In this document: in pieces, positions 6,519-32,770 of the stretch
How positions within the stretch are numbered: position 1 is the stretch's first letter
Layout of the letters: each line of letters begins with the position of its first letter
IMG/VR virus record: IMGVR_UViG_3300037511_000195
From: a virus
Direction: 5' to 3' (one strand)
DNA length: 43,363 nt
The notes under the pieces: generated by a model
Database searches by the model: none
What the model was told of the DNA's origin: nothing
What the model saw: only the letters and a program-made list of their open reading frames with translations
Position numbers and translations under genes: made by a program

Positions 6519-7852
6519 GCTTGTTGCTTGCTTTGGGTTAGGGCGTCGATGCCATGTGAAAGTGTTTCGTGGGCATGAAACTCATCGAGTGGAATGTGAT
6601 GTTCAATGGTCATGGATGCGTATTCCGTAGGATTACTGGGATGCAGCCATGCGATGCGGATTTGCTGCGAATCCTCATTGAATACTTGGTGCTCCAGAAT
6701 GCGCATCCGCTCCCTGTCCTTCTCCCACTCCTCTGCGCGTGCGGTGGCGGCGTCCCGTTCTGCGACTATGCGCTCGACCATCTCATCGATCTTTTCGCCG
6801 TCGTGTTCCTCGGTCTCTCCAGTGCCGTGTTTGTGGAGCAGGTTGATGAGCTTCACGCGCAGGGCGCGGTCTTTTGCGGTGGCGGCAGAAAGTTGGGCGC
6901 GGAGATCCGCTATGAATTGATCCAACGTTGGCAAATGCTCACGGGCGTTGTTCTTTAAGCCTGGGTGGAAGTTAAGCTTTTGTCCGCACGCTTCCTCAAT
7001 GCCATCCACCCATTTGTCGTCGCGGCGCACCGATTCATCACAGCAAGCGTCGCGCTGAGCAACGAGATGAGCCTTCGTGGATTCGGAAAGCGCCAACTGC
7101 TGGCGCAGAGAGTCGCGCTCGGAACGCTGGGCGAGAATTTCGCTCTTCGTGCAGTCAAATTCAGCCTTAAGACCAGAATGAATATGTTGACCGTCGCCAG
7201 CAGCGTAATGGAGGTCTGATAGCAGTTTTGTCGCCCCATCCCGCTCCTTCGTGAGCCGCTCTACCTCGGCACGGGCGGCGGAAAGCTTAGATTTCAATTC
7301 CCTTATCGTATTGCTTTGTGGTCCGGCCTGATTGACACACTGGACAACGATATTCGCTAAGGTGCGACGGCGTGATTCGGCGGCAGGGGTCAAGTCAGTC
7401 AGGTCAAAGTGACAAACAATCTCGCTCACCTTTTTACCATCGGGGCGCATAGGGCCGACCCAAAGGCTCCTGCAAGTATCCTCAAGGCCCCATAGCGGCG
7501 TCCCGCCAACGGGTGCCACTGGCTCGGACGGGTCGGACGTTCCGAGCGTGGCGTTACATGCGACTTGGTTGTCCGTGCATTGGGCAGTTTGGATTTGTGG
7601 TCCACTCGGAGCTACAGGTGCACAGTCTTGGTTTGTTGTCGCGCATACTTCATCACTGGTCCTTTCTGGTTCAGTTGGTCTCCAAAACTCAGGCGGCACG
7701 CACGGCACCCACCGACCACTGATTTCCATGCACCAGCCTTGAAAGTCGAAGCTGTAGCGGACGATTCCAGTCTGGCCATCGGCCCATTTTGCTTCGATGG
7801 GAATGCCAGATAGTGGCGCGTTGGCGATGGGACGCCAGTCGGTGGGGTTCAT
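6515..7852 (-). CDS. Hypothetical coiled-coil protein with a DUF551-like N-terminus
   Basis: The ATG at 7852 (MNPTDWRPIANAPL...) overlaps the upstream stop. The C-terminal ~230 aa are heptad-like (LKSKLSAARAEVERLTKERD...). Confidence 0.6.
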   Translation of the reverse strand: MNPTDWRPIANAPLSGIPIEAKWADGQTGIVRYSFDFQGWCMEISGRWVPCVPPEFWRPTEPERTSDEVCATTNQDCAPVAPSGPQIQTAQCTDNQVACNATLGTSDPSEPVAPVGGTPLWGLEDTCRSLWVGPMRPDGKKVSEIVCHFDLTDLTPAAESRRRTLANIVVQCVNQAGPQSNTIRELKSKLSAARAEVERLTKERDGATKLLSDLHYAAGDGQHIHSGLKAEFDCTKSEILAQRSERDSLRQQLALSESTKAHLVAQRDACCDESVRRDDKWVDGIEEACGQKLNFHPGLKNNAREHLPTLDQFIADLRAQLSAATAKDRALRVKLINLLHKHGTGETEEHDGEKIDEMVERIVAERDAATARAEEWEKDRERMRILEHQVFNEDSQQIRIAWLHPSNPTEYASMTIEHHIPLDEFHAHETLSHGIDALTQSKQQA

Positions 7853-13350: not shown

Positions 13351-13445
13351 GGCATCAGGTAGCTAAGGACCAGCGGCAGCCCCGCCACGACGGCGTAGAG
13401 GCAGGCCGCGATGGCTAGGCCGTAGAGGACGCGGAGGAGGATCAT
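13347..13445 (-). CDS. Putative 32-aa single-TM peptide
   Basis: MILLRVLYGLAIAACLYAVVAGLPLVLSYLMP, coupled by ATGA at both ends. The longer track ORF 13347..13736 overlaps the better 13442..13828 frame. Confidence 0.35.
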   Translation of the reverse strand: MILLRVLYGLAIAACLYAVVAGLPLVLSYLMP

Positions 13446-13828
13446 CGAACGCAAAGCAGCGCGGGGTTGAGAACTCCAGCGGACTCGTTGGCGCGGTCGC
13501 CTTCGTCGACTATTTGGGTTTCTTTGTTGTGCCATCGACGAAGCTGCTCGCCGTGAATCCAAAAGTGAGCCAGCGCCGATACCGCGCAGCCATACATGAA
13601 CCCAGTGATGCCCTCGGTGTCGGAACTGTGCGAGATACGCTGTGCGTGATCCACCATGAATCGCATCACGGTGCCGGGCTCGTCCTGATTCACGCCGCGC
13701 TCCTCCATCTCCTGCTCCATCTTGTTCATCCAGCATTCGCCGTAGCGGACCACGGCATTGCCATAAGGGTCGGAGTTTTTGGACTTATATGATTCGTATT
13801 CTTCCTTTTTTGATTCGATGATTTTCAT
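13442..13828 (-). CDS. Hypothetical protein (128 aa)
   Basis: The ATG at 13828 (MKIIESKKEEYESYK...) gives a protein-like sequence. The track N-terminal extension is Arg/Gly/Pro-rich. Confidence 0.55.
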   Translation of the reverse strand: MKIIESKKEEYESYKSKNSDPYGNAVVRYGECWMNKMEQEMEERGVNQDEPGTVMRFMVDHAQRISHSSDTEGITGFMYGCAVSALAHFWIHGEQLRRWHNKETQIVDEGDRANESAGVLNPALLCVR

Positions 13829-13844
13829 GGGTGTTCTTTCGGTC

Positions 13845-14165
13845 TTATTTCGGTGTGGAAAGGGTGCGCCTGAGCCGCTCCAGCGCCGCCAGGAAGCGGC
13901 ACAGCCGGACGTAGGATTCCTCGGCCCGCAGCCGCGCATTGCCGGTCAGGCGCTCCTTGTCGTCCCGTATGCACCGCTTAGCGTAGCGCCAGTCATGCGG
14001 CTGCACCTGCGGCAGGGTCGCGTAGGCCGTGGGCTCGGAGGCGTAGGTGCGGACGTGGCCTAGGGCCGGGCAAGGGGAACCGCCGTCAGGGCTTGCACCT
14101 GAACTGTTACGTAGCCCACGTGAGGCATCAGTCGTCTTATGCGCGGCGGTGTTGTAAGATTTCAT
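13845..14165 (-). CDS. Hypothetical protein (106 aa)
   Basis: ATG start overlapping the stop of the 30-aa peptide ORF. Confidence 0.4.
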   Translation of the reverse strand: MKSYNTAAHKTTDASRGLRNSSGASPDGGSPCPALGHVRTYASEPTAYATLPQVQPHDWRYAKRCIRDDKERLTGNARLRAEESYVRLCRFLAALERLRRTLSTPK

Positions 14166-15847: not shown

Positions 15848-16939
15848 CTAGAACTTCACCTTCTTCGCACTGGCCAGGGAATGCCGATGGTCGGGATGCA
15901 CGTAAGTGCGCATCGCCAGCGCGCCACCATCGGCATGGCCGAGCCACCGGCTGACGGTCGGCACATCGACACCACTCTTGATGGCCACGGTGGCGAACAT
16001 GTGCCGCAGGTCGTAGACACGCTGGTGCGGCAGGCCCAGCTTGCGGCAGGCGTTGCGGAGCGCCGTGTTGCGGGGATGTTGTTTACGCGGGAACACGTAG
16101 ACGCCTTCGCGATCCAGCGTCTTGAGCAGCCTGCGCATGGGGGCAATGATGGGAATCGGGGGCCGCTCCGATCCCGTCTGCGACAGCGTCTTGCCGCCTG
16201 CTACGCGAATGAATCCCTCATCCTCGTTGATGTGCTCCCACTTGAGCGCCAGTTGCTCTCCAGGCCGCATGCCGCTGTAGGCCGCGAACTCCAGCCAATC
16301 GGCGCAGGTCTGCGCGTGCCATTGCGAGCTGTCCCGAATTACGGAAATCAGACTATGAAATTGTTCCGGCGTCAGCACGTCGCGGCGTTTGCGCACAATC
16401 CGCAGGCGCCGGATCTTCGCCGCCGGATTCTCGGAAATCACCCCGGCACTGCGAGCCAGCTCAATACCGCGCCGCACCCACATCAGCAGATGATTGGCCT
16501 GCTGTGGCGCGTATTTGGACAGCACCCGATTCCACCACTCCACCATGTCGGCAGGCTGCACCTCTGCCAGCTTCTTTTCGGGGAGTGCCGCGCCCTTGCC
16601 GAGCGCCGCCAGCGAATCCAAATATCCGGTGCGGGTGGAGTCCATGATCGCCGCGTCGGCCTTCACGGTCGCCCGCAGTCGCACTACCACGTCCGCAAAA
16701 GTTTGCAGGCTGTCGGCGGCGACGGCCACGCGGCGCCCCATCAGCAACAGCTTGGCGGGTAATAGTTCCTTGGCCCGCTGGTAAACCTGCGTCCGCAGGC
16801 TCCGGAAGGACTGCTTCCCCTTCACCGACAGCCGGGCGTAGTAGTTCCCGCTCGGAACATGCAGGTAAAGATTCTGAGTATTGGTGGATCGCCAAATTTC
16901 CTTGCTGGCCTTTTCCGGGGGTGTAGGGTGCGCCCTCAT
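15848..16939 (-). CDS. int: Tyrosine recombinase / phage integrase
   Basis: C-terminal catalytic signature: YSGMRPGE (Arg), HQRVYDLRHMFAT (H-x-x-R) and GHADGGALAMRTYVH (Tyr). I preferred the ATG at 16939, because the track start at 16963 is a TTG. Confidence 0.9.
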   Translation of the reverse strand: MRAHPTPPEKASKEIWRSTNTQNLYLHVPSGNYYARLSVKGKQSFRSLRTQVYQRAKELLPAKLLLMGRRVAVAADSLQTFADVVVRLRATVKADAAIMDSTRTGYLDSLAALGKGAALPEKKLAEVQPADMVEWWNRVLSKYAPQQANHLLMWVRRGIELARSAGVISENPAAKIRRLRIVRKRRDVLTPEQFHSLISVIRDSSQWHAQTCADWLEFAAYSGMRPGEQLALKWEHINEDEGFIRVAGGKTLSQTGSERPPIPIIAPMRRLLKTLDREGVYVFPRKQHPRNTALRNACRKLGLPHQRVYDLRHMFATVAIKSGVDVPTVSRWLGHADGGALAMRTYVHPDHRHSLASAKKVKF

Positions 16940-16985
16940 TTCATGCACTTTTCCGGCACCCAACGCACCATGTCAACCGCGCCAA

Positions 16986-25646: not shown

Positions 25647-26015
25647 CTACGTCACAGCCTTCAGGCGTTCGAGAGTGACGGTAACTTTCCGGAAGCCTGT
25701 GCGGGACTGCGATTGAACGAATGTACGCGGATAGCAGCCGCCGGCAGTCTGGCCGAACTGGTCCACGTCGTTTGCGGGAACAAAGGCCGTGGTAGGCACG
25801 ACAGCCATTACTCCAGTTGATCCGAAAACCTCGCCCGAGATGGTGATCATGGCCTTGACGGCACCAGACGCGAAACCGCGAGCCTCGCCAACTTTGTCGG
25901 CCAGAATGTCCGTGAACTCCGGCTCGCTCGATACCTCATAGGTATCGATATTGATGCCGGTTTCGTCGGCTTCTACGCCGTGCTGCGCGCCTGAAAGATC
26001 AACAAGAGAAGCCAT
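25647..26015 (-). CDS. Putative major tail (tube) protein
   Basis: 122 aa, beta-rich, and positioned upstream of the chaperone/tape-measure block. The call rests on position only. Confidence 0.35.
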   Translation of the reverse strand: MASLVDLSGAQHGVEADETGINIDTYEVSSEPEFTDILADKVGEARGFASGAVKAMITISGEVFGSTGVMAVVPTTAFVPANDVDQFGQTAGGCYPRTFVQSQSRTGFRKVTVTLERLKAVT

Positions 26016-26016
26016 A

Positions 26017-26187
26017 TTACTTGGTGGGTTGGGTTTCGGGTTTCTTCAGCATGGCCTCGTGTGCCGCGATGCGGTTCTTGATGCTCTCCGCTTTGCCGTT
26101 CTGCGTTTCCTCCGCGCGCTTAAGCATGACGCCTAGATCGCGCAAGGTCGCCTTGACATTTCGCTCGTGAATCTCGTCGGCGGTCAT
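26017..26187 (-). CDS. Hypothetical small protein (56 aa from the ATG at 26187)
   Basis: The track start at 26223 is a TTG. The ATG at 26187 sits in TCCGAACCATGAcc, a one-mismatch copy of the CCGAAACATGA motif (plus strand 26184-26194). Confidence 0.45.
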   Translation of the reverse strand: MTADEIHERNVKATLRDLGVMLKRAEETQNGKAESIKNRIAAHEAMLKKPETQPTK

Positions 26188-26230
26188 GGTTCGGACTATG
26201 CCGATACGGCAAATATCCGTCAATGTCTAA

Positions 26231-26249
26231 ATGCAATTCACTTGCGATT
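26231..26249 (-). promoter_or_regulatory. Late-region motif copy L4 (weakest match)
   Basis: Plus strand reads atgcaattcacttgcgatt. It overlaps the stop of 26248..26685. Confidence 0.35.
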
Positions 26250-26685
26250 ACGGAAGATAGACCACCTTGAAGGTCTTCGTGTGCTCCCGCTGATTGGCAT
26301 GACCCTCGTTCTCGGACACGGCTGTGACGGTATCTACCTGGAACCCATTCGGGAAAAGGCTCGTGGCCGTCGTGATGACGCTAGATGGCGCGCTGGCGAG
26401 CCCCGCTTCCACGGCAAGCTGCCATGCATCCAGCGTAGTCGGGTTATTGGTGCTCATCACAATCGACACCTGCACCATGGAGGACATGATCTTCCCTCCA
26501 AGGAACGGCGCCCTGGCATCGACTTCCGGCGTCGGATCGTCGGCTGACACAGTGATGTAATCAGGCTTGTCCTTAAGGTTGGTCGTGGTGTCCTTCGCCA
26601 AAATCGACACGCCAGAAAGCCCGCTCTGCGCCGCCAAGAGCGCGATGATGATGGTCTCGATGTTGGACTGGTTGGGGCTGCTCAT
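26248..26685 (-). CDS. Tail-completion / tail-terminator-like protein
   Basis: 145 aa. The N-terminus (IETIIIALLAAQSGLSGVSILAKD...KPDYITVSADD) resembles the DUF3168-type pattern, and the position lies between the connectors and the tube. Confidence 0.4.
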   Translation of the reverse strand: MSSPNQSNIETIIIALLAAQSGLSGVSILAKDTTTNLKDKPDYITVSADDPTPEVDARAPFLGGKIMSSMVQVSIVMSTNNPTTLDAWQLAVEAGLASAPSSVITTATSLFPNGFQVDTVTAVSENEGHANQREHTKTFKVVYLP

Positions 26686-26966
26686 TGCTCGGATTCTGGA
26701 TGAACCTTTTTCTGCGGATTGATAATTAGTCCATGAAGCTGCCGATCGATCTCAGTCCACATCTCAGCGCACCCTTGACAAATATCCAACTTGAGTCCGT
26801 CGGAGTCCGGATTGCCATTGATTTTAAATGGCACAAAAAACTCGCGCTTGCCCATGAAGATGGAATCGCCGCAAATATCACACGCCCCACCGTCCGCTTC
26901 AGCCTCGCGAAGAACCCTGCCCGACCAGTCGAATCCGATAGTAATAGTTGTGCGGTCCATGCTCAT
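26682..26966 (-). CDS. Small Cys-rich (zinc-ribbon-like) protein
   Basis: CDICGD...CQGC motif, coupled by ATGA at both ends. Confidence 0.45.
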   Translation of the reverse strand: MSMDRTTITIGFDWSGRVLREAEADGGACDICGDSIFMGKREFFVPFKINGNPDSDGLKLDICQGCAEMWTEIDRQLHGLIINPQKKVHPESEQ

Positions 26967-27301
26967 TGTGAGGTATTATCCCCGATGGTGATGTAGAGAA
27001 TCCCCGACCGCTCCACGGTTGAGATTACCTGCTGCGTGATGGTGCCCCCGCCTGGGATGGCGGTCAGCGTGGCGATCTGCGGCTTGACCGGGATACCACC
27101 CGTCCATGCTGACGTGAGGGTGATGAGTGTATTTTGGCCAGTGCTGCTGATGCCGCCGAACTCAAATGCGGTGGTCTGGTCGTCGTTTCCGATAATGAAA
27201 GCCACTGAGCTTACACTGCCGATAGCGACAACCGGCGACGTGCCGATAAAATCGGTCTGCGCCTCGTACAATTCGGTAAAGCATTCCGTCGCCACGCTCA
27301 T
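26963..27301 (-). CDS. Head-tail connector/adaptor-like protein (112 aa)
   Basis: Position and size only. Coupled to the glycosyltransferase gene by ATGA. Confidence 0.4.
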   Translation of the reverse strand: MSVATECFTELYEAQTDFIGTSPVVAIGSVSSVAFIIGNDDQTTAFEFGGISSTGQNTLITLTSAWTGGIPVKPQIATLTAIPGGGTITQQVISTVERSGILYITIGDNTSQ

Positions 27302-28311
27302 GCCGGACGATACCTTTCTACGTTAATTCTAGCAACTTCATTCGCGACCGTGAATGCGGCAGCTTCCCATGTCCATTGAGGGCCGGTGAAGTCGCCGCGC
27401 CAGCGCGAAGTATAGGCGATTTCCAGCGCACTTAGCACATCCTCTGGCGTCGATACGGCCCATCGATTTTCATCCTCCTTGGCGTTAATCAACACACTGA
27501 CAGCTTCCGCGATATCGCGATGGCCGGTCTTGAGGTTGGCCGCTACACGCTTTCCGCATGCCGCGTATTCCATCAGCACGAGGTTGGTGCCGCCCTCGCA
27601 CCGGTTCGGGAATAGGCCGTAGTCCGTGTTTTGCATCTCGGCTGCCAGTTGCTCGTGGGCTAGTTGCGGAAGGACCGTGAATTGATGGCGAGGGATTCCA
27701 TTTGCCTCCAGGATGGCGGCAAATGCTTCTTCCTGGCTGCTGAAGTTCTGCGCAGGAATAGCAAGTCCACTCCGATGCAATGCCTCAACCGTCAGGCCAA
27801 ACCACGGATTGTGCCACGCGCAGACAAGGTGCGCGTCCGGGTGCTTCTTGGCGAACTGCGCAAAGGCGCGGATCACGAGGTCTTGGCCCTTACGCCACTC
27901 GAACTTTCCGCCACTGAAAACGCGGAATTTTCCATCGGCCTTGCGCGGCCCCGGCTTGAAGACCGAATGATCAACGCCCTGAATCAGCACCTTGGCATTG
28001 TGGATGCCGCGCTCCCACATGCGATCCAGGCACCATGAAGAGCCGCAAAATACCGTGTCGTATTTCTTCGCGTTGGCCACGGCGGCAGGCTCAAGCGGGC
28101 TTTCGAAAAACGTGTAGGCGAGATTCACTTCGCCGCGTGCGCCCGATGCCGGGTTGAACGAATGATCTACCAGCGGCATGAACACCACGTCAGCCGCGCC
28201 ATCTGTTAGCGTGAAGTGATGGCCAAGCGCACCACGCAGATACCGATTACATGTTGCCCAACCGAATCCCTGCGCCTCTGGCTGGAAGCCTGCATAGTGG
28301 AGAGTATTCAT
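27298..28311 (-). CDS. Glycosyltransferase, GT-B fold (GT4/group-1-like)
   Basis: C-terminal CEGGTNLVLMEYAACGKRV resembles the E-x7/8-E sugar-nucleotide motif of retaining GT-B enzymes. Length is about 337 aa. Confidence 0.65.
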   Translation of the reverse strand: MNTLHYAGFQPEAQGFGWATCNRYLRGALGHHFTLTDGAADVVFMPLVDHSFNPASGARGEVNLAYTFFESPLEPAAVANAKKYDTVFCGSSWCLDRMWERGIHNAKVLIQGVDHSVFKPGPRKADGKFRVFSGGKFEWRKGQDLVIRAFAQFAKKHPDAHLVCAWHNPWFGLTVEALHRSGLAIPAQNFSSQEEAFAAILEANGIPRHQFTVLPQLAHEQLAAEMQNTDYGLFPNRCEGGTNLVLMEYAACGKRVAANLKTGHRDIAEAVSVLINAKEDENRWAVSTPEDVLSALEIAYTSRWRGDFTGPQWTWEAAAFTVANEVARINVERYRPA

Positions 28312-28907
28312 AGTTTTTGGACGTTGAAGGCGAAATAAAGGTCAGGCCCGCATGCGGCTTCGAAGCTGATGCTCTGATATGTCGTGCACTCGAAGCCCGC
28401 GCGCGTCAGCAGGCTGGCCCACGCGTGGGGCGTGAGGACGCTATAATGGTTCAGGTTCCGCTCGTGGTGCGCGGTGGTGTTTGGCGCCGGGACTTCCATG
28501 TAGAGCCTTCCTCCCGGCTTCAGCACGCGGGCAAACTCGCGCAGGGTGAACAGCGGAACCGGCGAATGCTCAACCACGTGCCGCGCCCATACGGCCTCAA
28601 ACTTGCCCGTGAAATCGTCCGGCATATCGTTCTGATCCATCTGCACGCAGTTGAATCCTAGCGCGCGGCAATCCCGCACGTCCTCTATCGATAGCGAAAT
28701 CCCCACCGTCTCGATGCCAGCATGGCGGAACATTTCCAGCGCCGGGCCTTTGCCGCACCCTGCATCAAGAACGGTGGCACCTGGAGGCAGTTGCTTGATA
28801 AACGGCTCGCCCATCTGCAGCGTGAGGCAGTCGTGCCCGCTGGAACGCGGCTCCGGATAGGTTTCCGAGCGGCACTGCGATAGGAAGTCAGCGAGGCGCG
28901 GGTTCAT
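28308..28907 (-). CDS. Class I SAM-dependent methyltransferase
   Basis: Motif I VLDAGCGKGPALEMF, and post-I and later motifs (FEAVWARHVVEH, LKPGGRLYMEVP). The ATG at 28907 overlaps the upstream stop. Confidence 0.75.
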   Translation of the reverse strand: MNPRLADFLSQCRSETYPEPRSSGHDCLTLQMGEPFIKQLPPGATVLDAGCGKGPALEMFRHAGIETVGISLSIEDVRDCRALGFNCVQMDQNDMPDDFTGKFEAVWARHVVEHSPVPLFTLREFARVLKPGGRLYMEVPAPNTTAHHERNLNHYSVLTPHAWASLLTRAGFECTTYQSISFEAACGPDLYFAFNVQKL

Positions 28908-30328
28908 AGTTCGGCAATCACTTGTTGGATCACGGTCTCCCAATCTCCCGCGACCGGCTGCCGGAAAAGGCGATACTGAGGATACCACGGGGAGTCTTCA
29001 CGCGTGAGCATCCAACGGAAATCCGGAGAGCTTGGGAGTAGCAGCCACACGGGCTTGCCGAGCGCGCCCGCGAGGTGCGCCACGGCGGTATCGACGCAGA
29101 TCAGCAAATCCATTTGCAGGATCGCGTTCGCGGTCATCGTCCAATCGGTGATGAACTGCGCCAAATCCATGCAGCCCGTTAGCTGCTGAACTTCGTGCGC
29201 CCTGGGACCGCATTGCAGGCTGTAGAATTGGCAATCCGGAGCCACATCGATGAACCGCTGGAATTGCGCTGGCTTCATGGAGCGCACAAAGTCTTTGCCG
29301 TGCGTCGGCGAACCTGCCCACACGAGACCAATCTTCTTTCGGACTTCCCGGGGCGGATATGGCGCCAGGATTTCAAACTTCACCCATTCGTCCGTGGGTT
29401 TGATGTACGGGATGTTGGCCGGGATGGTGCCGAGATCCGTCCCGAATACATCGGGCAGATGCATCAGCGGGATATGGTAGTCGAAATCATGCGGCGGGGC
29501 TGGCGGGTCCACGATAAGACCGTCCAGGCCAGTCACGCCCCTCAGTAGCGCGTGCATGGATTCCGCGCACGAAAACAGCACCCGGCTGGCTGGCCAGCGC
29601 TGCTTGATCAGTTCGGCGTAGCGGATGAATTGAATCTGGTCGCCCCAGCCTTGTTCGCAGCTAATGACCAGCGTCTTGCTGTCGAGAGATTCGCCTTCCC
29701 ACATCGGCTTATCGGTCTGGAGAATCTTACTTGGAAAGCTCCGCACAGCGAAGCGCGAGCGATACTCACGGAACCCGCGCCGAATCTCGCCCATCATCAG
29801 CAGAATCATGGACCGGCTAAACTGCGCACCCGCTGAATTAGGATCGCTGTTGATAATCTCGAAGAACTGCCGATCCGCTTCTTCATACTGGCCATCGAAT
29901 ACAAGGATGTCTGCGTAGTTGAGCCGGGCCGCACGGTGCGCCGGGTTGAGCTGAAGGGCGAAATGGAAGGCGATCTTGGCCTTCTCCGGAAAACCTAGTT
30001 TGCCCATGATCAGCCCGTGGTTATTCAGGCAATCGGCCTTAGTGACACTATCGGGCTCCGGGGACTCGATGGCGCGCGAGTAATACCCCACAGCTTCCGC
30101 GTAGAGCGCATGCATCTTGGCCGGGTTGGCTTCCTTGTTCGCGGCCTGCTGTCGCAACGCCCCGAGGTTGAACAATACTTTTGGATCGGTTGGGATGTGC
30201 AGCAAATACTCCTCATAGTGTTTGCTGGCGCGCCCGTGGTCTCCTTCTTCGCTGGCCAGATGCGCCTTATCGAGCAATTTGCGGTAGTGTTTACGCGCAA
30301 CAAGAACTGGCATGCTGTGAATGGACAT
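28904..30328 (-). CDS. TPR-repeat protein fused to a GT-B (GT9/GT41-like) glycosyltransferase domain
   Basis: The N-terminal ~190 aa contain TPR-like repeats (YAEAVGYYSRAIESPEPD, AKIAFHFALQLNPAHRAARLNYADILV). The C-terminus (GWGDQIQFIRYAEL...VWAGSPTHGKD...LLICVDTAVAHLAGALGKPVWLLLP) is typical of TPR-glycosyltransferases. Confidence 0.7.
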   Translation of the reverse strand: MSIHSMPVLVARKHYRKLLDKAHLASEEGDHGRASKHYEEYLLHIPTDPKVLFNLGALRQQAANKEANPAKMHALYAEAVGYYSRAIESPEPDSVTKADCLNNHGLIMGKLGFPEKAKIAFHFALQLNPAHRAARLNYADILVFDGQYEEADRQFFEIINSDPNSAGAQFSRSMILLMMGEIRRGFREYRSRFAVRSFPSKILQTDKPMWEGESLDSKTLVISCEQGWGDQIQFIRYAELIKQRWPASRVLFSCAESMHALLRGVTGLDGLIVDPPAPPHDFDYHIPLMHLPDVFGTDLGTIPANIPYIKPTDEWVKFEILAPYPPREVRKKIGLVWAGSPTHGKDFVRSMKPAQFQRFIDVAPDCQFYSLQCGPRAHEVQQLTGCMDLAQFITDWTMTANAILQMDLLICVDTAVAHLAGALGKPVWLLLPSSPDFRWMLTREDSPWYPQYRLFRQPVAGDWETVIQQVIAEL

Positions 30329-30375
30329 TGGTTGGTGCCGGATAACGGTTGCCGGGGCCGGTTAGAGCCGATGGC

Positions 30376-30762
30376 TCAGGAAATTTGTTTTAGGCCAATA
30401 GCGAAGGCGCCGATGTCGAACGTGGCCGTAGTCGAGGATGTGAGGGCCTTGAGCTGCACGTAACGCTTGCAGTTACGCGTATCGAGCGCGATTTCCAGCG
30501 TAGGACTGGCGGCGGTATTGGCCGCGACGGTCGGCAGGCCAGCGGATGCCGCGAAGGTCGTGTTATCCGCCGAATCCAATAGCGAATATTGGATTGAAGT
30601 CGAGCCGCTTCCGCTCAATTCGTTGTGCGCGATGACAATCTTGCAGTTGTTGATGAAGTCGCGCAGATCAACGCCTGCGAAGGTCTGCGTCCCAGCGCCT
30701 ACCGCGACACGTTTTGCGCACAGCGTAAGCGCTGTCAGTTGGCCGTTGATATCAGGATTCAT
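30376..30762 (-). CDS. Possible head decoration / accessory capsid protein (128 aa)
   Basis: It lies immediately downstream of the capsid gene and is beta-rich with Ser/Thr-rich stretches (SGSGSTS, TSSTTAT). Confidence 0.35.
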   Translation of the reverse strand: MNPDINGQLTALTLCAKRVAVGAGTQTFAGVDLRDFINNCKIVIAHNELSGSGSTSIQYSLLDSADNTTFAASAGLPTVAANTAASPTLEIALDTRNCKRYVQLKALTSSTTATFDIGAFAIGLKQIS

Positions 30763-30771
30763 GGTCGTTCT

Positions 30772-32691
30772 TTAGTTGGTCGAGACGCTGAAGCTCTTGG
30801 TGTGGCGGATGCCGTTGTCACAATACATCTGCATGACGATGCGAATTTGGCCCTGGAGCGACAGGCTATAGGGGTCCACGATGACCGAGGTATCGGCCCA
30901 ATCCGCCAAGATGAGGTCGTCAAAGTTGCCGAAGATCACGCTCGTGGCGGTCGGGACTTGGTTGGTGGCAAAGGCCGGGTAGCCGTTCACCATTTCGTTC
31001 TTCCAAACCGGGATAGAGTTGGCGGCGGAGATTTCCGCAACCAGCTTCGCATTGTTTTTCACGGTCGGGGTGGTGATGTAACCAAGGCGCCCCTGCACTG
31101 CGTTGTTGAGCGCGACATTCGTCTCGAACTGCACCGCGTTCGCGTAGGTCATGGACTGCGCGGCAGAGAGTGTAACTGCGGTCGAGAGTGAGCCGGTATT
31201 CAGGATGCCCTGGGGCTCGCCGCTGTTGCCGCTGCCGTTGATCGCCGCAAGGTCGCGGGCGATTGCAATGATGGTCATGAGGTCTTGGCGCACGAAGTTC
31301 TCAACGTCGATGCTGGCCTGCGCGAGGAGCTGTTGAGTGTAGGCGGTGGCCGCGCCGAGCTTGTGCGGCGTAAGGTTGAGTTGGCCGACCGTCTGGTTTG
31401 TGGCCGTGATGGTGGAATCTTCCGCCAGCCAGCTTGCGGTGGCGCCGCCCGTTTGGCGCGGGATGGATACATTGCCGCGAAGACCAGACAGCGTGCGCGC
31501 GCCCATACGGGCAACAGCCATCTGGTTGCGCAAAAGCTCAATCATCGAGCCGCCGAGAAGGTCGGTGCCCACCAGTGCTCCAGCGGCGCCATAGACGTTG
31601 GTAAAGAGCGCCCGGACGTTTTCGGGCATCGTGCGAAGTTGTTCGCCGGTGATGCCGCGCGGGAAGGCCGCGCCGCGCATCACGTCTTGCGGAAGGAAGA
31701 ACTCCAGGCCAGATGCTTCGCGGCCAATCAGCTTCGCGTGCGCCTCACTGGCCTCCTTCTCCAGGCCGTCAAGCGGCTGCTTGCGCGCAAGCATGCCGAT
31801 GGCACGCACGAGCGAATAGGACCGCTTATCCTTATCCGACATACCCAAATTCTGAACGGTCGTTTCGACCGCCTTCACCTCGTCAAAGTGGCCATCCATC
31901 ACGGCATTGCGGAACTCCTGTTCCGTTTTGCCCTCGCGGATCATTTTCTCCGCGAGTTCGCCGGTTTCGATTTTCCGACCCCCGAGGCCCTTTTCGCGAA
32001 AGTGTTTTGCGAGTTCGGCAATAGCGGTGCTGCGGGCCCGCTCCTTGGCGACGATGGCGGATTCCTGTTCAGCGGTCACGGTAATGGCTTCGCTCATATT
32101 TCGGGTATGCGGCTTTTCTTCGGTCTCGTCAATCTCTTTTTGCAAGTCAGTGGCAATAACGTCGAAAGGCACGCTGCGGAGCTGCTCCAAATTTCGGCCC
32201 ACGCCGACAGTCGGATCGGCGGGAATCGTCACCAGTGAAGCCTCGTGTGGCGCCCACTTGAAGCGCAGGATCGGAATCCCGTCGCGTTCGCCAATCTTCT
32301 TGCCCTCGCCGGTAATTCGGTAGCCCACTGACGTATCCGGAAGAGCGCCGCTCATGGCGTCCTTCTTTTTAGTCTGCGCAAATTCGCTCTCGCTCCAAAT
32401 CAGGCCGGAGACCGTGCAGCGCTTGCCATCGTTCTCATGCTTCGTGGCGCGGCCAAGGTGTTGGTCGCGGTCATGGTTGAACAAGATCGGAAGACCGCCC
32501 TTTAGGCGCGTGTCGTCCATGCCGCCCGGCGAATGATCAAGGACTTCATAGTATTCCTTGTCGTTCCAATAGTCGTAGCGCTTGTACGGCTCGTCGCTCG
32601 AAATGGACATGCAGAAATTCCCGTCGCCCATTGATTCGATTGTCGCGGCGCGGCGGAGTTCTTTTGGGACTTTGATATTAATCGTTTTCAT
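30772..32691 (-). CDS. Prohead serine protease (HK97/S78-like) fused to an HK97-fold major capsid protein
   Basis: N-terminus has LPILFNHDRDQHLG (His) and LPDTSVGYR (Ser). A coiled scaffold-like linker follows. The C-terminal half (SIPRQTGGATASWLAEDSTITATNQTVGQLNLTPHKLGA...NGSGNSGEPQGILNT) is typical of HK97-family capsids. Confidence 0.85.
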   Translation of the reverse strand: MKTINIKVPKELRRAATIESMGDGNFCMSISSDEPYKRYDYWNDKEYYEVLDHSPGGMDDTRLKGGLPILFNHDRDQHLGRATKHENDGKRCTVSGLIWSESEFAQTKKKDAMSGALPDTSVGYRITGEGKKIGERDGIPILRFKWAPHEASLVTIPADPTVGVGRNLEQLRSVPFDVIATDLQKEIDETEEKPHTRNMSEAITVTAEQESAIVAKERARSTAIAELAKHFREKGLGGRKIETGELAEKMIREGKTEQEFRNAVMDGHFDEVKAVETTVQNLGMSDKDKRSYSLVRAIGMLARKQPLDGLEKEASEAHAKLIGREASGLEFFLPQDVMRGAAFPRGITGEQLRTMPENVRALFTNVYGAAGALVGTDLLGGSMIELLRNQMAVARMGARTLSGLRGNVSIPRQTGGATASWLAEDSTITATNQTVGQLNLTPHKLGAATAYTQQLLAQASIDVENFVRQDLMTIIAIARDLAAINGSGNSGEPQGILNTGSLSTAVTLSAAQSMTYANAVQFETNVALNNAVQGRLGYITTPTVKNNAKLVAEISAANSIPVWKNEMVNGYPAFATNQVPTATSVIFGNFDDLILADWADTSVIVDPYSLSLQGQIRIVMQMYCDNGIRHTKSFSVSTN

Positions 32692-32770
32692 CGTGTCGTC
32701 AGTTGTTGCGGGTCGCGGTTCTCGATGCGGATGGGCTCTGGCTGTGGAGGGCGCGGCTTGCGTTTCTTTT

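Follow-up and report, generated by a model that had tools for sequence, protein, structure and literature searches.

The window analyzed here is the whole 43,363-nt stretch of the IMG/VR virus record IMGVR_UViG_3300037511_000195, which looks like a complete genome of a temperate siphovirus-type phage. We focused on a cassette of three genes that lies among its head genes and encodes two predicted glycosyltransferases and a predicted methyltransferase. The structural genes are all on the minus strand. They begin with the small and large terminase subunits (GpA type), a gpW-like head-tail joining protein, a lambda-type portal protein and a 639-aa fusion of protease, scaffold and major capsid protein (MCP; 30772-32691). 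Then come a 128-aa protein (p128; 30376-30762), the cassette, several small proteins and a tape-measure-like protein, which is followed by a 698-aa fiber-like protein and the integrase (15848-16963). The first cassette gene (28904-30328) encodes a 474-aa protein that joins tetratricopeptide repeats (TPR) to a GT9-like glycosyltransferase domain of GT-B fold. The second (28308-28907) encodes a class I S-adenosylmethionine (SAM)-dependent methyltransferase of 199 aa, counted from its ATG, and the third (27298-28311) a GT4-type (Glycos_transf_1) glycosyltransferase of 337 aa. Hereafter they are called the TPR-GT9 enzyme, the methyltransferase and the GT4 enzyme.

An initial annotation, made from the sequence without database searches, had described these three genes as a translationally coupled cassette embedded in the late structural operon. 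Our analysis agrees with this description. The open reading frames (ORFs) are present on the minus strand at the given positions and match the expected Pfam families (TPR and Glyco_transf_9, Methyltransf_23 and Glycos_transf_1), and the cassette is situated between the capsid shell genes and the downstream genes. ATGA start/stop overlaps were read directly in the sequence at all of the claimed junctions (28907-28904, 28311-28308 and 27301-27298). A spacer of 47 nt separates the p128 gene from the start of the TPR-GT9 gene. Matches resembling sigma-70 promoters or terminators between 26000 and 33000 did not exceed the shuffled expectation. For the methyltransferase, a longer ORF starting with GTG extends to 28988; we adopted the ATG start because the homologs are 196-201 aa long.

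The TPR part of the first enzyme was matched by TPR_19, TPR_14 and TPR_17 above the Pfam cut-offs. Its catalytic part gave borderline scores with Glyco_transf_9, 21.4 bits for the full protein and 22.2 bits for residues 196-474 alone, against a cut-off of 22. The same profile was matched by 15 of 16 relatives (best E = 9.4e-7), and precomputed PF01075 annotations are present on many homologs. NCBIfam gave only a faint match to heptosyltransferase I, and GT9 was the sole match of the catalytic domain in Pfam, in NCBIfam and among the sequences of the PDB. An AlphaFold2 (AF2) model built from 41 homologs had a mean confidence (pLDDT) of 93.9; eleven helices at residues 8-194 form a TPR superhelix, and residues 219-473 form a two-lobed Rossmann-like GT-B domain. 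A profile of the C-terminal domain found 3tov and 1psw (WaaF) alone in the PDB, with weak E values of 0.15-0.18, and these alignments span both signature motifs of GT9. The two motifs are invariant among the 41 homologs: EQGxGD (Q226, G227, G229 and D230) and VDTAxxHLAG (D413, T414, H418, L419 and G421).

The initial annotation had likened this protein to O-GlcNAc transferase (OGT) of family GT41. The likeness of architecture was borne out, and the family was not. In whole-chain Foldseek searches the top matches were SPINDLY (SPY) and OGT (E = 1e-11 to 1e-8) with low TM scores (0.26-0.37), which we ascribe to the shared arrangement of a TPR superhelix followed by a GT-B domain. The best superposition at the domain level was with the GT9 structure 3tov_A (TMt 0.55, root-mean-square deviation 5.0). 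The GT41 profile (Glyco_transf_41, PF13844) had no match in the Pfam scan of this enzyme, and its PDB sequence matches to OGT covered only the TPR region (residues 54-189). Membership in GT41 was thus rejected; the catalytic domain is GT9-like, and the similarity to OGT and SPY is one of shared architecture only. The Pfam check that had been proposed to fix the transferase families returned a clear GT4 profile for one enzyme, and for the other a borderline GT9 and no GT41. Within the TPR superhelix, asparagine occurs at position 6 of three successive repeats (N54, N103 and N137) and is invariant or nearly so. In OGT, an asparagine ladder at this position holds extended substrate peptides, and the three residues resemble that ladder. 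We propose that the TPR-GT9 enzyme is an initiating protein glycosyltransferase that recognizes its acceptor through the TPR domain.

The other two enzymes scored above the cut-offs of their families. The methyltransferase matched Methyltransf_23 (E = 1.7e-20); the scores for Methyltransf_23, Methyltransf_11 and Methyltransf_25 (73.8, 54.5 and 42.2 bits) were each over the cut-off. Its family is tight, comprising about 65 proteins at 44-59% identity, and the sequence relatives of the enzyme in the PDB are O-methyltransferases of small molecules and sugars. The GT4 enzyme matched Glycos_transf_1 (E = 4.3e-9, 36.6 bits, cut-off 26.4), Glyco_trans_1_4 (E = 4.9e-8, 33.8 bits, cut-off 27) and the PHROG family phrog_2170, 'glycosyltransferase' (E = 1.6e-15), and a PDB sequence search with it gave nothing useful. 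From family and context, we propose that the GT4 enzyme adds a second sugar and that the methyltransferase acts on the glycan, although a protein target is also possible for the latter. A 37%-identical homolog of the methyltransferase is located by itself between the terminase and portal genes of phage MW202825 (L106, 4950-5597), with no glycosyltransferase nearby.

The cassette directly follows the genes of the capsid shell. The p128 family is small (125 proteins), and the Pfam family Bbp16 matched weakly in 20 of 40 sampled members (best E = 2.4e-5). The AF2 model of p128 (pLDDT 84.7) is an all-beta, eight-stranded sandwich, and Foldseek related it to viral jelly rolls that include the cement protein of phage BPP-1, 3j4u_H (TM 0.56/0.52, 19% identity). 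Bbp16 of this Bordetella phage is likewise a small jelly-roll protein encoded beside the gene of an HK97-fold capsid protein; however, the identity is only 19%, and binding of p128 to the capsid is predicted. We treat p128 as a predicted capsid cement or decoration protein, which is in line with its earlier label as a capsid-accessory protein; with the jelly-roll fold of a cement protein, it would sit on the capsid surface. We know of no glycosylation of Bbp16. In the MCP fusion, Phage_capsid matched residues 383-636 (E = 2.2e-38), the whole protein matched phrog_617 (E = 3.5e-103), and the N-terminus had a weak match to the prohead protease family Peptidase_S78. Divergence is much faster in the N-terminal part of this fusion than in its C-terminal domain (mean distances 0.55 vs 0.36).

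Relatives of this phage were collected by scanning viral contigs with the capsid protein and with an alignment of p128, followed by tblastn with all of the window proteins. For conservation, a related locus was counted if its sequence continued for at least about 3.7 kb beyond p128; this gave 40 loci (duplicate fetches of the same contigs included), and the statistics below are based on 16 non-redundant phages. The order capsid protein, p128, TPR-GT9 enzyme, methyltransferase and GT4 enzyme was kept in 40 of 40 loci. MCP identity to the window was 33-62% in these loci, and all three cassette genes were retained at 41-64% protein identity. Such retention indicates selection for the set. The close homologs of the TPR-GT9 enzyme (40-67% identity) were in phage contigs with the same layout. 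In the related cassette-bearing loci p128 is encoded immediately upstream of the cassette, some of them with small ORFs or an extra methyltransferase inserted, and the downstream tail modules differ among loci (L027 and L029). The sole exception was the distant relative L024 (MCP 42%, p128-like protein 30%), which has no cassette in the 6.3 kb after p128 and carries an FII-like head-tail attachment gene directly after the p128-like gene.

Some smaller variations were observed at the cassette itself. In L029, an extra FkbM-type methyltransferase (Methyltransf_21; 6938-7738) lies between the cement gene and the TPR-GT9 gene; the tail module of this phage is completely different, with proteins of 1059 and 824 aa. 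Small ORFs (53-96 aa) are found at differing places within the cassette or right in front of it (L001 9437-10055, L029 9386-9843 and L004 7562-7852), so the cassette junctions tolerate insertion. No near-identical phage was found when positions 26000-33000 were compared by megablast with 50,697 phage records.

The three genes did not share one pattern of inheritance. The similarity of L001 and L004 to the window lies in the center and not in the large terminase subunit (TerL) or the portal: their identities are 31-36% for TerL, 47% for the portal, 57-62% for the MCP, 80-88% for p128, 62-64% for the TPR-GT9 enzyme, 45-54% for the methyltransferase and 52-55% for the GT4 enzyme. L043 and L047 show the reverse and resemble the window in the flanks (TerL 59-70%, portal 61-69%, MCP 33-38%, p128 48-49%, TPR-GT9 enzyme 42-43%, methyltransferase 56-57%, GT4 enzyme 52-60%). 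This comparison points to modular exchange. The TPR-GT9 gene appears to have traveled with the genes of the capsid shell, and the genes of the methyltransferase and the GT4 enzyme follow the flanks. Distance matrices gave a similar picture. The best correlate of both domains of the TPR-GT9 enzyme was p128 (r = 0.85 for the TPR domain and 0.82 for the GT9 domain); with the C-terminal domain of the MCP the values were 0.75 and 0.71. The methyltransferase and the GT4 enzyme correlated best with the portal (r = 0.89 and 0.86, respectively) and with each other (r = 0.84). When the GT9 domain was used as covariate, the TPR domain still correlated with p128 (partial r = 0.41, permutation P = 2e-4) and with the MCP C-terminal domain (partial r = 0.35, P = 2e-4). 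In the reciprocal test, the GT9 domain controlled for the TPR domain gave no signal against either of the two. These correlations are suggestive, as an indirect sign, of co-variation between the TPR domain and the shell proteins. Exchange and correlation of this kind would be anticipated where the TPR domain has to match an acceptor in the capsid shell and the other two enzymes act on the glycan.

We also surveyed the cellular relatives of the cassette enzymes. The combination of TPR with a GT9-like domain is very common in bacteria, with at least 6,993 matches at E ≤ 0.001 among the 8,000 candidates scored. A scan of GTDB with one genome per species yielded 52 cellular TPR-GT9 loci, all at 45% identity or less, from Verrucomicrobiota, Planctomycetota, Holophagales and Alphaproteobacteria; no prophage of this phage lineage turned up in that scan. 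In seven of the 52 loci, flagellin, FliD, FliS or FliK was encoded within a few kb of TPR-GT9. One of the seven, from Pirellulales, contains FliK, a 1408-aa TPR/GT9/GT2 protein, flagellin and FliS. The remaining six are orthologous loci of Holophagales/Geothrix, with TPR-GT9 twice, FliD and flagellin. Cellular homologs of the methyltransferase (46-49% identity) sit between glycosyltransferases in flagellin loci.

Two further loci contain relatives of the whole cassette. The flagellin locus of Geobacter argillaceus (L102, VLLN01000013, 1747-18414) encodes, in order, FlaF, TPR proteins, a 1350-aa protein with three TPR-GT9 units (32-34% identity to the phage enzyme), a methyltransferase (49%), a glycosyltransferase, a GT4 homolog (35%, E = 1e-50), two TPR-GT41 proteins, flagellin and FlbT. 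The locus as a whole looks like a very large, uncharacterized flagellin-glycosylation island. A metagenome-assembled genome of Deltaproteobacteria has the same components, including a GT4 homolog at 35% identity, together with a TylF-type sugar methyltransferase, and its locus ends with TPR-GT9, flagellin, FlbT and FlaF. Homologs of all three phage enzymes thus occur, with the gene order preserved, in loci that resemble flagellin-glycosylation islands of the FlmG/FlaF/FlbT type. In Verrucomicrobiota, TPR-GT9 is fused with a homolog of the phage GT4 enzyme (38-40% identity) in one polypeptide, and both domain orders exist (L060 7479-10220, 913 aa; L057 5079-7505, 808 aa; L057 9203-12475, 1090 aa). 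Such fusions, of the Rosetta stone type, indicate that the two transferases act together. The fusions stand in tandem arrays with further TPR-GT9 paralogs, and the neighbors in L060 are housekeeping genes (LeuA and ValRS). No flagellar gene was present in any phage locus examined.

Among characterized proteins, FlmG of Caulobacter crescentus and Brevundimonas offers a close parallel by its published description, as it is a soluble protein with an N-terminal TPR and a C-terminal GT-B domain (PMC7591256). The TPR domain of FlmG binds the acceptor flagellin and the GT-B domain sets the donor specificity (PMC7591256; bioRxiv 10.1101/2022.03.25.485807). Cellular homologs of the phage enzyme with 32-39% identity adjoin flagellin, FlaF, FlbT, FliD and FliS. 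Unlike FlmG, the phage enzyme is encoded in a capsid gene block, in loci that have no flagellin gene, and it has a short TPR domain of about 190 aa. The sugar that FlmG transfers is pseudaminic or legionaminic acid, and the donor sugar of the phage enzyme may differ. The phage enzyme shares with the GT9 family, i.e. the lipopolysaccharide (LPS) heptosyltransferases WaaC and WaaF and the autotransporter heptosyltransferases TibC and Aah, the GT-B fold, the N-terminal GD and the C-terminal D(T/S)xxxH motif. It departs from them in its borderline scores, in its N-terminal TPR fusion and in a context that is not an LPS locus. As TibC and Aah illustrate, GT9-like enzymes can O-glycosylate proteins. 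The resemblance to OGT, SPINDLY and their bacterial homologs ends, as described above, at the catalytic domain, which fits GT9 better than GT41.

Virion glycosylation by phage enzymes is already known from mycobacteriophages. In Che8, Corndog (cluster O) and Myrna, phage-encoded glycosyltransferases are described as modifying capsid and tail-tube subunits (PMC11600133, PMC12619734 and PMC10877033, citing Freeman et al. 2023), and glycosylation is described there as lowering recognition by antibodies. In cluster O, an O-methyltransferase and three glycosyltransferases, the latter in tandem, are described as modifying the capsid and the tail tube (PMC11600133). The likeness to the present cassette lies in the encoding of glycosyltransferases and a methyltransferase with the structural genes. 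There are also differences. No mycobacteriophage homolog of the three cassette proteins was found by tblastn against the 50,697 phage records, and the mycobacteriophage glycans are described as lying on C-terminal extensions, which are absent from this phage. Within the literature searched, the sources that cite Freeman et al. 2023 do not mention a TPR-fused transferase for these mycobacteriophages. The host would also differ and is probably an environmental Gram-negative bacterium. Our full-text searches returned no description of a TPR-fused glycosyltransferase in a phage capsid module, which is a weak negative.

Comparable gene sets exist in other phages. The podovirus MW202512 (L005, 6850-12962) is unrelated, with an MCP of the Phage_capsid_3 family and an adaptor of the SU10 type. 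A TPR-glycosyltransferase (27% identity), a homing-type endonuclease, a Methyltransf_23 enzyme and a GT8 enzyme are encoded between the capsid gene and the adaptor gene. The TPR-glycosyltransferase, the Methyltransf_23 enzyme and the GT8 enzyme form a triad analogous, not orthologous, to the cassette. The set of two transferases and a methyltransferase had been called unusual by the initial annotation, which was an overstatement in view of MW202512 and of the set described for cluster O mycobacteriophages (PMC11600133). In T4-like cyanophages, TPR-GT9 homologs adjoin tail-fiber genes (Synechococcus phage BUCT-ZZ01, L104, 5848-7563; S-SRM01, L105, 5854-7203), and in S-SRM01 a sulfotransferase and another glycosyltransferase are nearby; glycosylation of cyanophage tail fibers by these enzymes is possible. 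BFVD contains several uncharacterized TPR plus GT9-like proteins from uncultured tailed phages.

The most economical reading of these observations is that the cassette is a captured flagellin-type protein O-glycosylation module, which would now work on a protein of the capsid shell and be made together with it. A lineage of lambda-like temperate phages would have acquired a cytoplasmic, FlmG-like module and fixed it in the head gene block, where it would be transcribed and translated along with the rest of the late structural operon. Through its TPR superhelix, the first enzyme would bind a shell protein, most likely p128 and otherwise the HK97 domain of the MCP. The GT9-like domain would transfer the first sugar to Ser or Thr of this acceptor, the GT4 enzyme would add the second sugar, and the SAM-dependent methyltransferase would methylate the glycan. 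A short methylated glycan would thereby coat the capsid surface, where it could shield the particle, stabilize it or alter what it sticks to. The initial annotation had also suggested decoration of virion proteins, and this suggestion gains substantial independent support, because the synteny is conserved, the TPR-GT9 enzyme is co-inherited with the capsid shell, homologs of all three enzymes reside in flagellin loci and an analogous triad exists in a podovirus; the acceptor and the sugar are deductions from this context. Overall, we consider glycosylation of a virion protein somewhat more probable than all other explanations combined.

The identity of the acceptor was approached by comparison among relatives. 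The initial annotation had pointed to Ser/Thr-rich proteins, including the gpW-like protein and the N-terminal half of the tail fiber (tailspike). Five structural proteins reach 20-26% Ser+Thr, against a mean of 12.8% over the 24 packaging-to-tail proteins, and none has a Ser/Thr tract. Ser/Thr richness is therefore not discriminating, and it did not single out the proposed candidates. Neither the gpW-like protein nor the tail fiber was favored by the comparative data, which point to the capsid shell instead. We regard p128 as the leading candidate acceptor and the MCP HK97 domain as the alternative candidate; if a virion protein is glycosylated, we place about two thirds of our confidence in these two jointly.

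Several points weigh against this interpretation. The virion glycan is a prediction from the genes, and the GT9 match of the supposed initiating enzyme is borderline. Correlations of distance matrices are confounded by shared ancestry and physical linkage, and the TPR-GT9 gene adjoins the p128 gene, so their co-transfer could reflect proximity alone. A conserved motif of p128, LLDSADNTTF, which includes an N-T-T sequon (core DSADNTTF), had been considered as the acceptor site linked to the cassette; it was rejected since L024, which has no cassette, keeps it as well. In mycobacteriophages, capsid and tail-tube proteins are glycosylated at their C-termini; no structural protein of this phage has a comparable Ser/Thr-rich tail. 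The solitary methyltransferase homolog of MW202825 implies that this methyltransferase family may have a target other than a glycan. Finally, the presence of homologs in flagellin loci is equally compatible with an action of the phage enzymes on the flagellin of the host.

This last possibility has to be weighed together with other targets. The cassette might act on flagellin or another protein of the host and give the filament a renewed or different glycosylation, for example so as to block flagellotropic competitors or alter the motility of infected or lysogenic cells. The nearest characterizable cellular relatives of all three enzymes are inside flagellin loci, and the phage is temperate. 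However, the cassette is translationally coupled within the late head operon and shows no sign of its own promoter, which fits expression during virion assembly and not in lysogens. The TPR-GT9 gene segregates and co-varies with capsid shell genes, flagellar genes are missing from all phage loci, and a flagellated host would have to be assumed; we therefore regard action on host flagellin as rather unlikely. The integrase would also suit a modification of host envelope glycans (LPS core, O-antigen or exopolysaccharide) for conversion or superinfection exclusion, with the GT9 enzyme as a heptosyltransferase-like and the GT4 enzyme as a polysaccharide transferase. The sole family match of the catalytic domain is indeed to the family of LPS heptosyltransferases, and GT4 enzymes are common in polysaccharide synthesis. 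Yet the fused TPR domain with its asparagine ladder suggests a protein or peptide partner, the cellular homologs are in flagellin and not in LPS loci, and the confident AF2 model of the TPR-GT9 enzyme shows no apparent membrane-spanning segment. The position and coupling within the late head operon also speak against an envelope target, as does the conservation of the cassette alongside the head module in phages whose tail modules differ. Such a target seems quite improbable to us.

A different kind of explanation is that the position among the head genes is only a tolerated insertion site, and that the enzymes serve a non-virion phage target, make a free or lipid-linked methylated oligosaccharide, or combine protein methylation with separate roles for the transferases. 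The site does accept insertions, since relatives carry small ORFs, homing endonucleases and further methyltransferases there, and the head module of MW202825 contains a methyltransferase homolog on its own. It is difficult to reconcile this explanation with the maintenance of the complete set in every related locus counted, which indicates selection, or with the fusions and the co-occurrence in flagellin loci, which tie the three enzymes together functionally. We think it unlikely, although it carries the most weight among the rival explanations, ahead of host flagellin, envelope glycans and DNA modification, in that order. Phage glycosyltransferases commonly glucosylate DNA (PMC12619734; bioRxiv 10.1101/2023.12.21.572611), so the two transferases might hypermodify phage DNA and the methyltransferase might be a DNA or nucleotide methylase. 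Among the replication and early genes scanned, there was no gene for a hydroxymethylase, 5mYOX or nucleotide modification, and the methyltransferase matches O-methyltransferases of small molecules and sugars, not DNA methylases. The TPR fusion, the position in the head operon and the homologs in flagellin loci do not fit a DNA target either, and we give this explanation very little credence.

Other features of the genome deserve a brief description. The protein p112 (26963-27301, minus strand, 112 aa) is coupled to the GT4 gene by the overlap at 27301-27298, and a fourth ATGA overlap at 26966-26963 links the p112 gene to the next gene. A structural role is presumed for p112, with position as the sole basis. 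The initial annotation had called the gene downstream of the cassette a head-tail connector; the coupling stands, while the connector identity was not borne out, as p112 has no match in Pfam or PHROG and no similarity to the FII-like gene of L024. Weak homologs of p112 occupy the same position in relatives. Both p112 and p94 were rejected as FII-like head-tail attachment proteins because both lack similarity to Phage_attach of L024. The head-tail joining protein of gpW type (34468-35061, minus strand, 197 aa, 23% Ser+Thr) matched phrog_5774 (E = 1.8e-22), and its match to the head-tail adaptor family phrog_118 is confined to residues 109-169. In the early region, a 165-aa protein (13442-13939, minus strand) matched Pfam Tad4, a type I Thoeris inhibitor (E = 8.9e-26); judging from this match, it is a probable anti-defense gene.

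The distinguishing aspects of this system are a TPR-guided, GT9-like initiating enzyme that is not homologous to the mycobacteriophage enzymes, the relationship to flagellin islands, the linkage to a cement protein and the occurrence in environmental phages with probably Gram-negative hosts. A broader scenario can be formulated from them. Lambda-like temperate phages might have captured an FlmG-like TPR-GT9 enzyme with the GT4 enzyme and the methyltransferase, and retargeted the set through the TPR domain to the cement protein, so that the whole capsid would bear a flagellin-like methylated O-glycan; a similar system might have originated independently in the unrelated podovirus, and possibly for the tail fibers of cyanophages, and TPR-GT9 enzymes might be a general, unrecognized class of phage virion glycosyltransferases outside the actinobacteriophages. 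We put this full scenario forward tentatively, as a possibility that is more doubtful than virion glycosylation itself.

In the literature searched, virion glycosylation has been documented experimentally only for mycobacteriophages. If our interpretation is true, capsid glycosylation would be more widespread and would have arisen more than once, in the TPR-guided system and in its podovirus analog. Compact modules of this kind could also be of practical use in displaying glycans on phage capsids. TPR-GT9 proteins are numerous (more than 6,900 homologs) and uncharacterized, and our data suggest a protein-glycosylating role for them. The link to flagellin islands predicts that acceptor specificity is coded in the TPR domain, which would be swapped together with the capsid shell genes.

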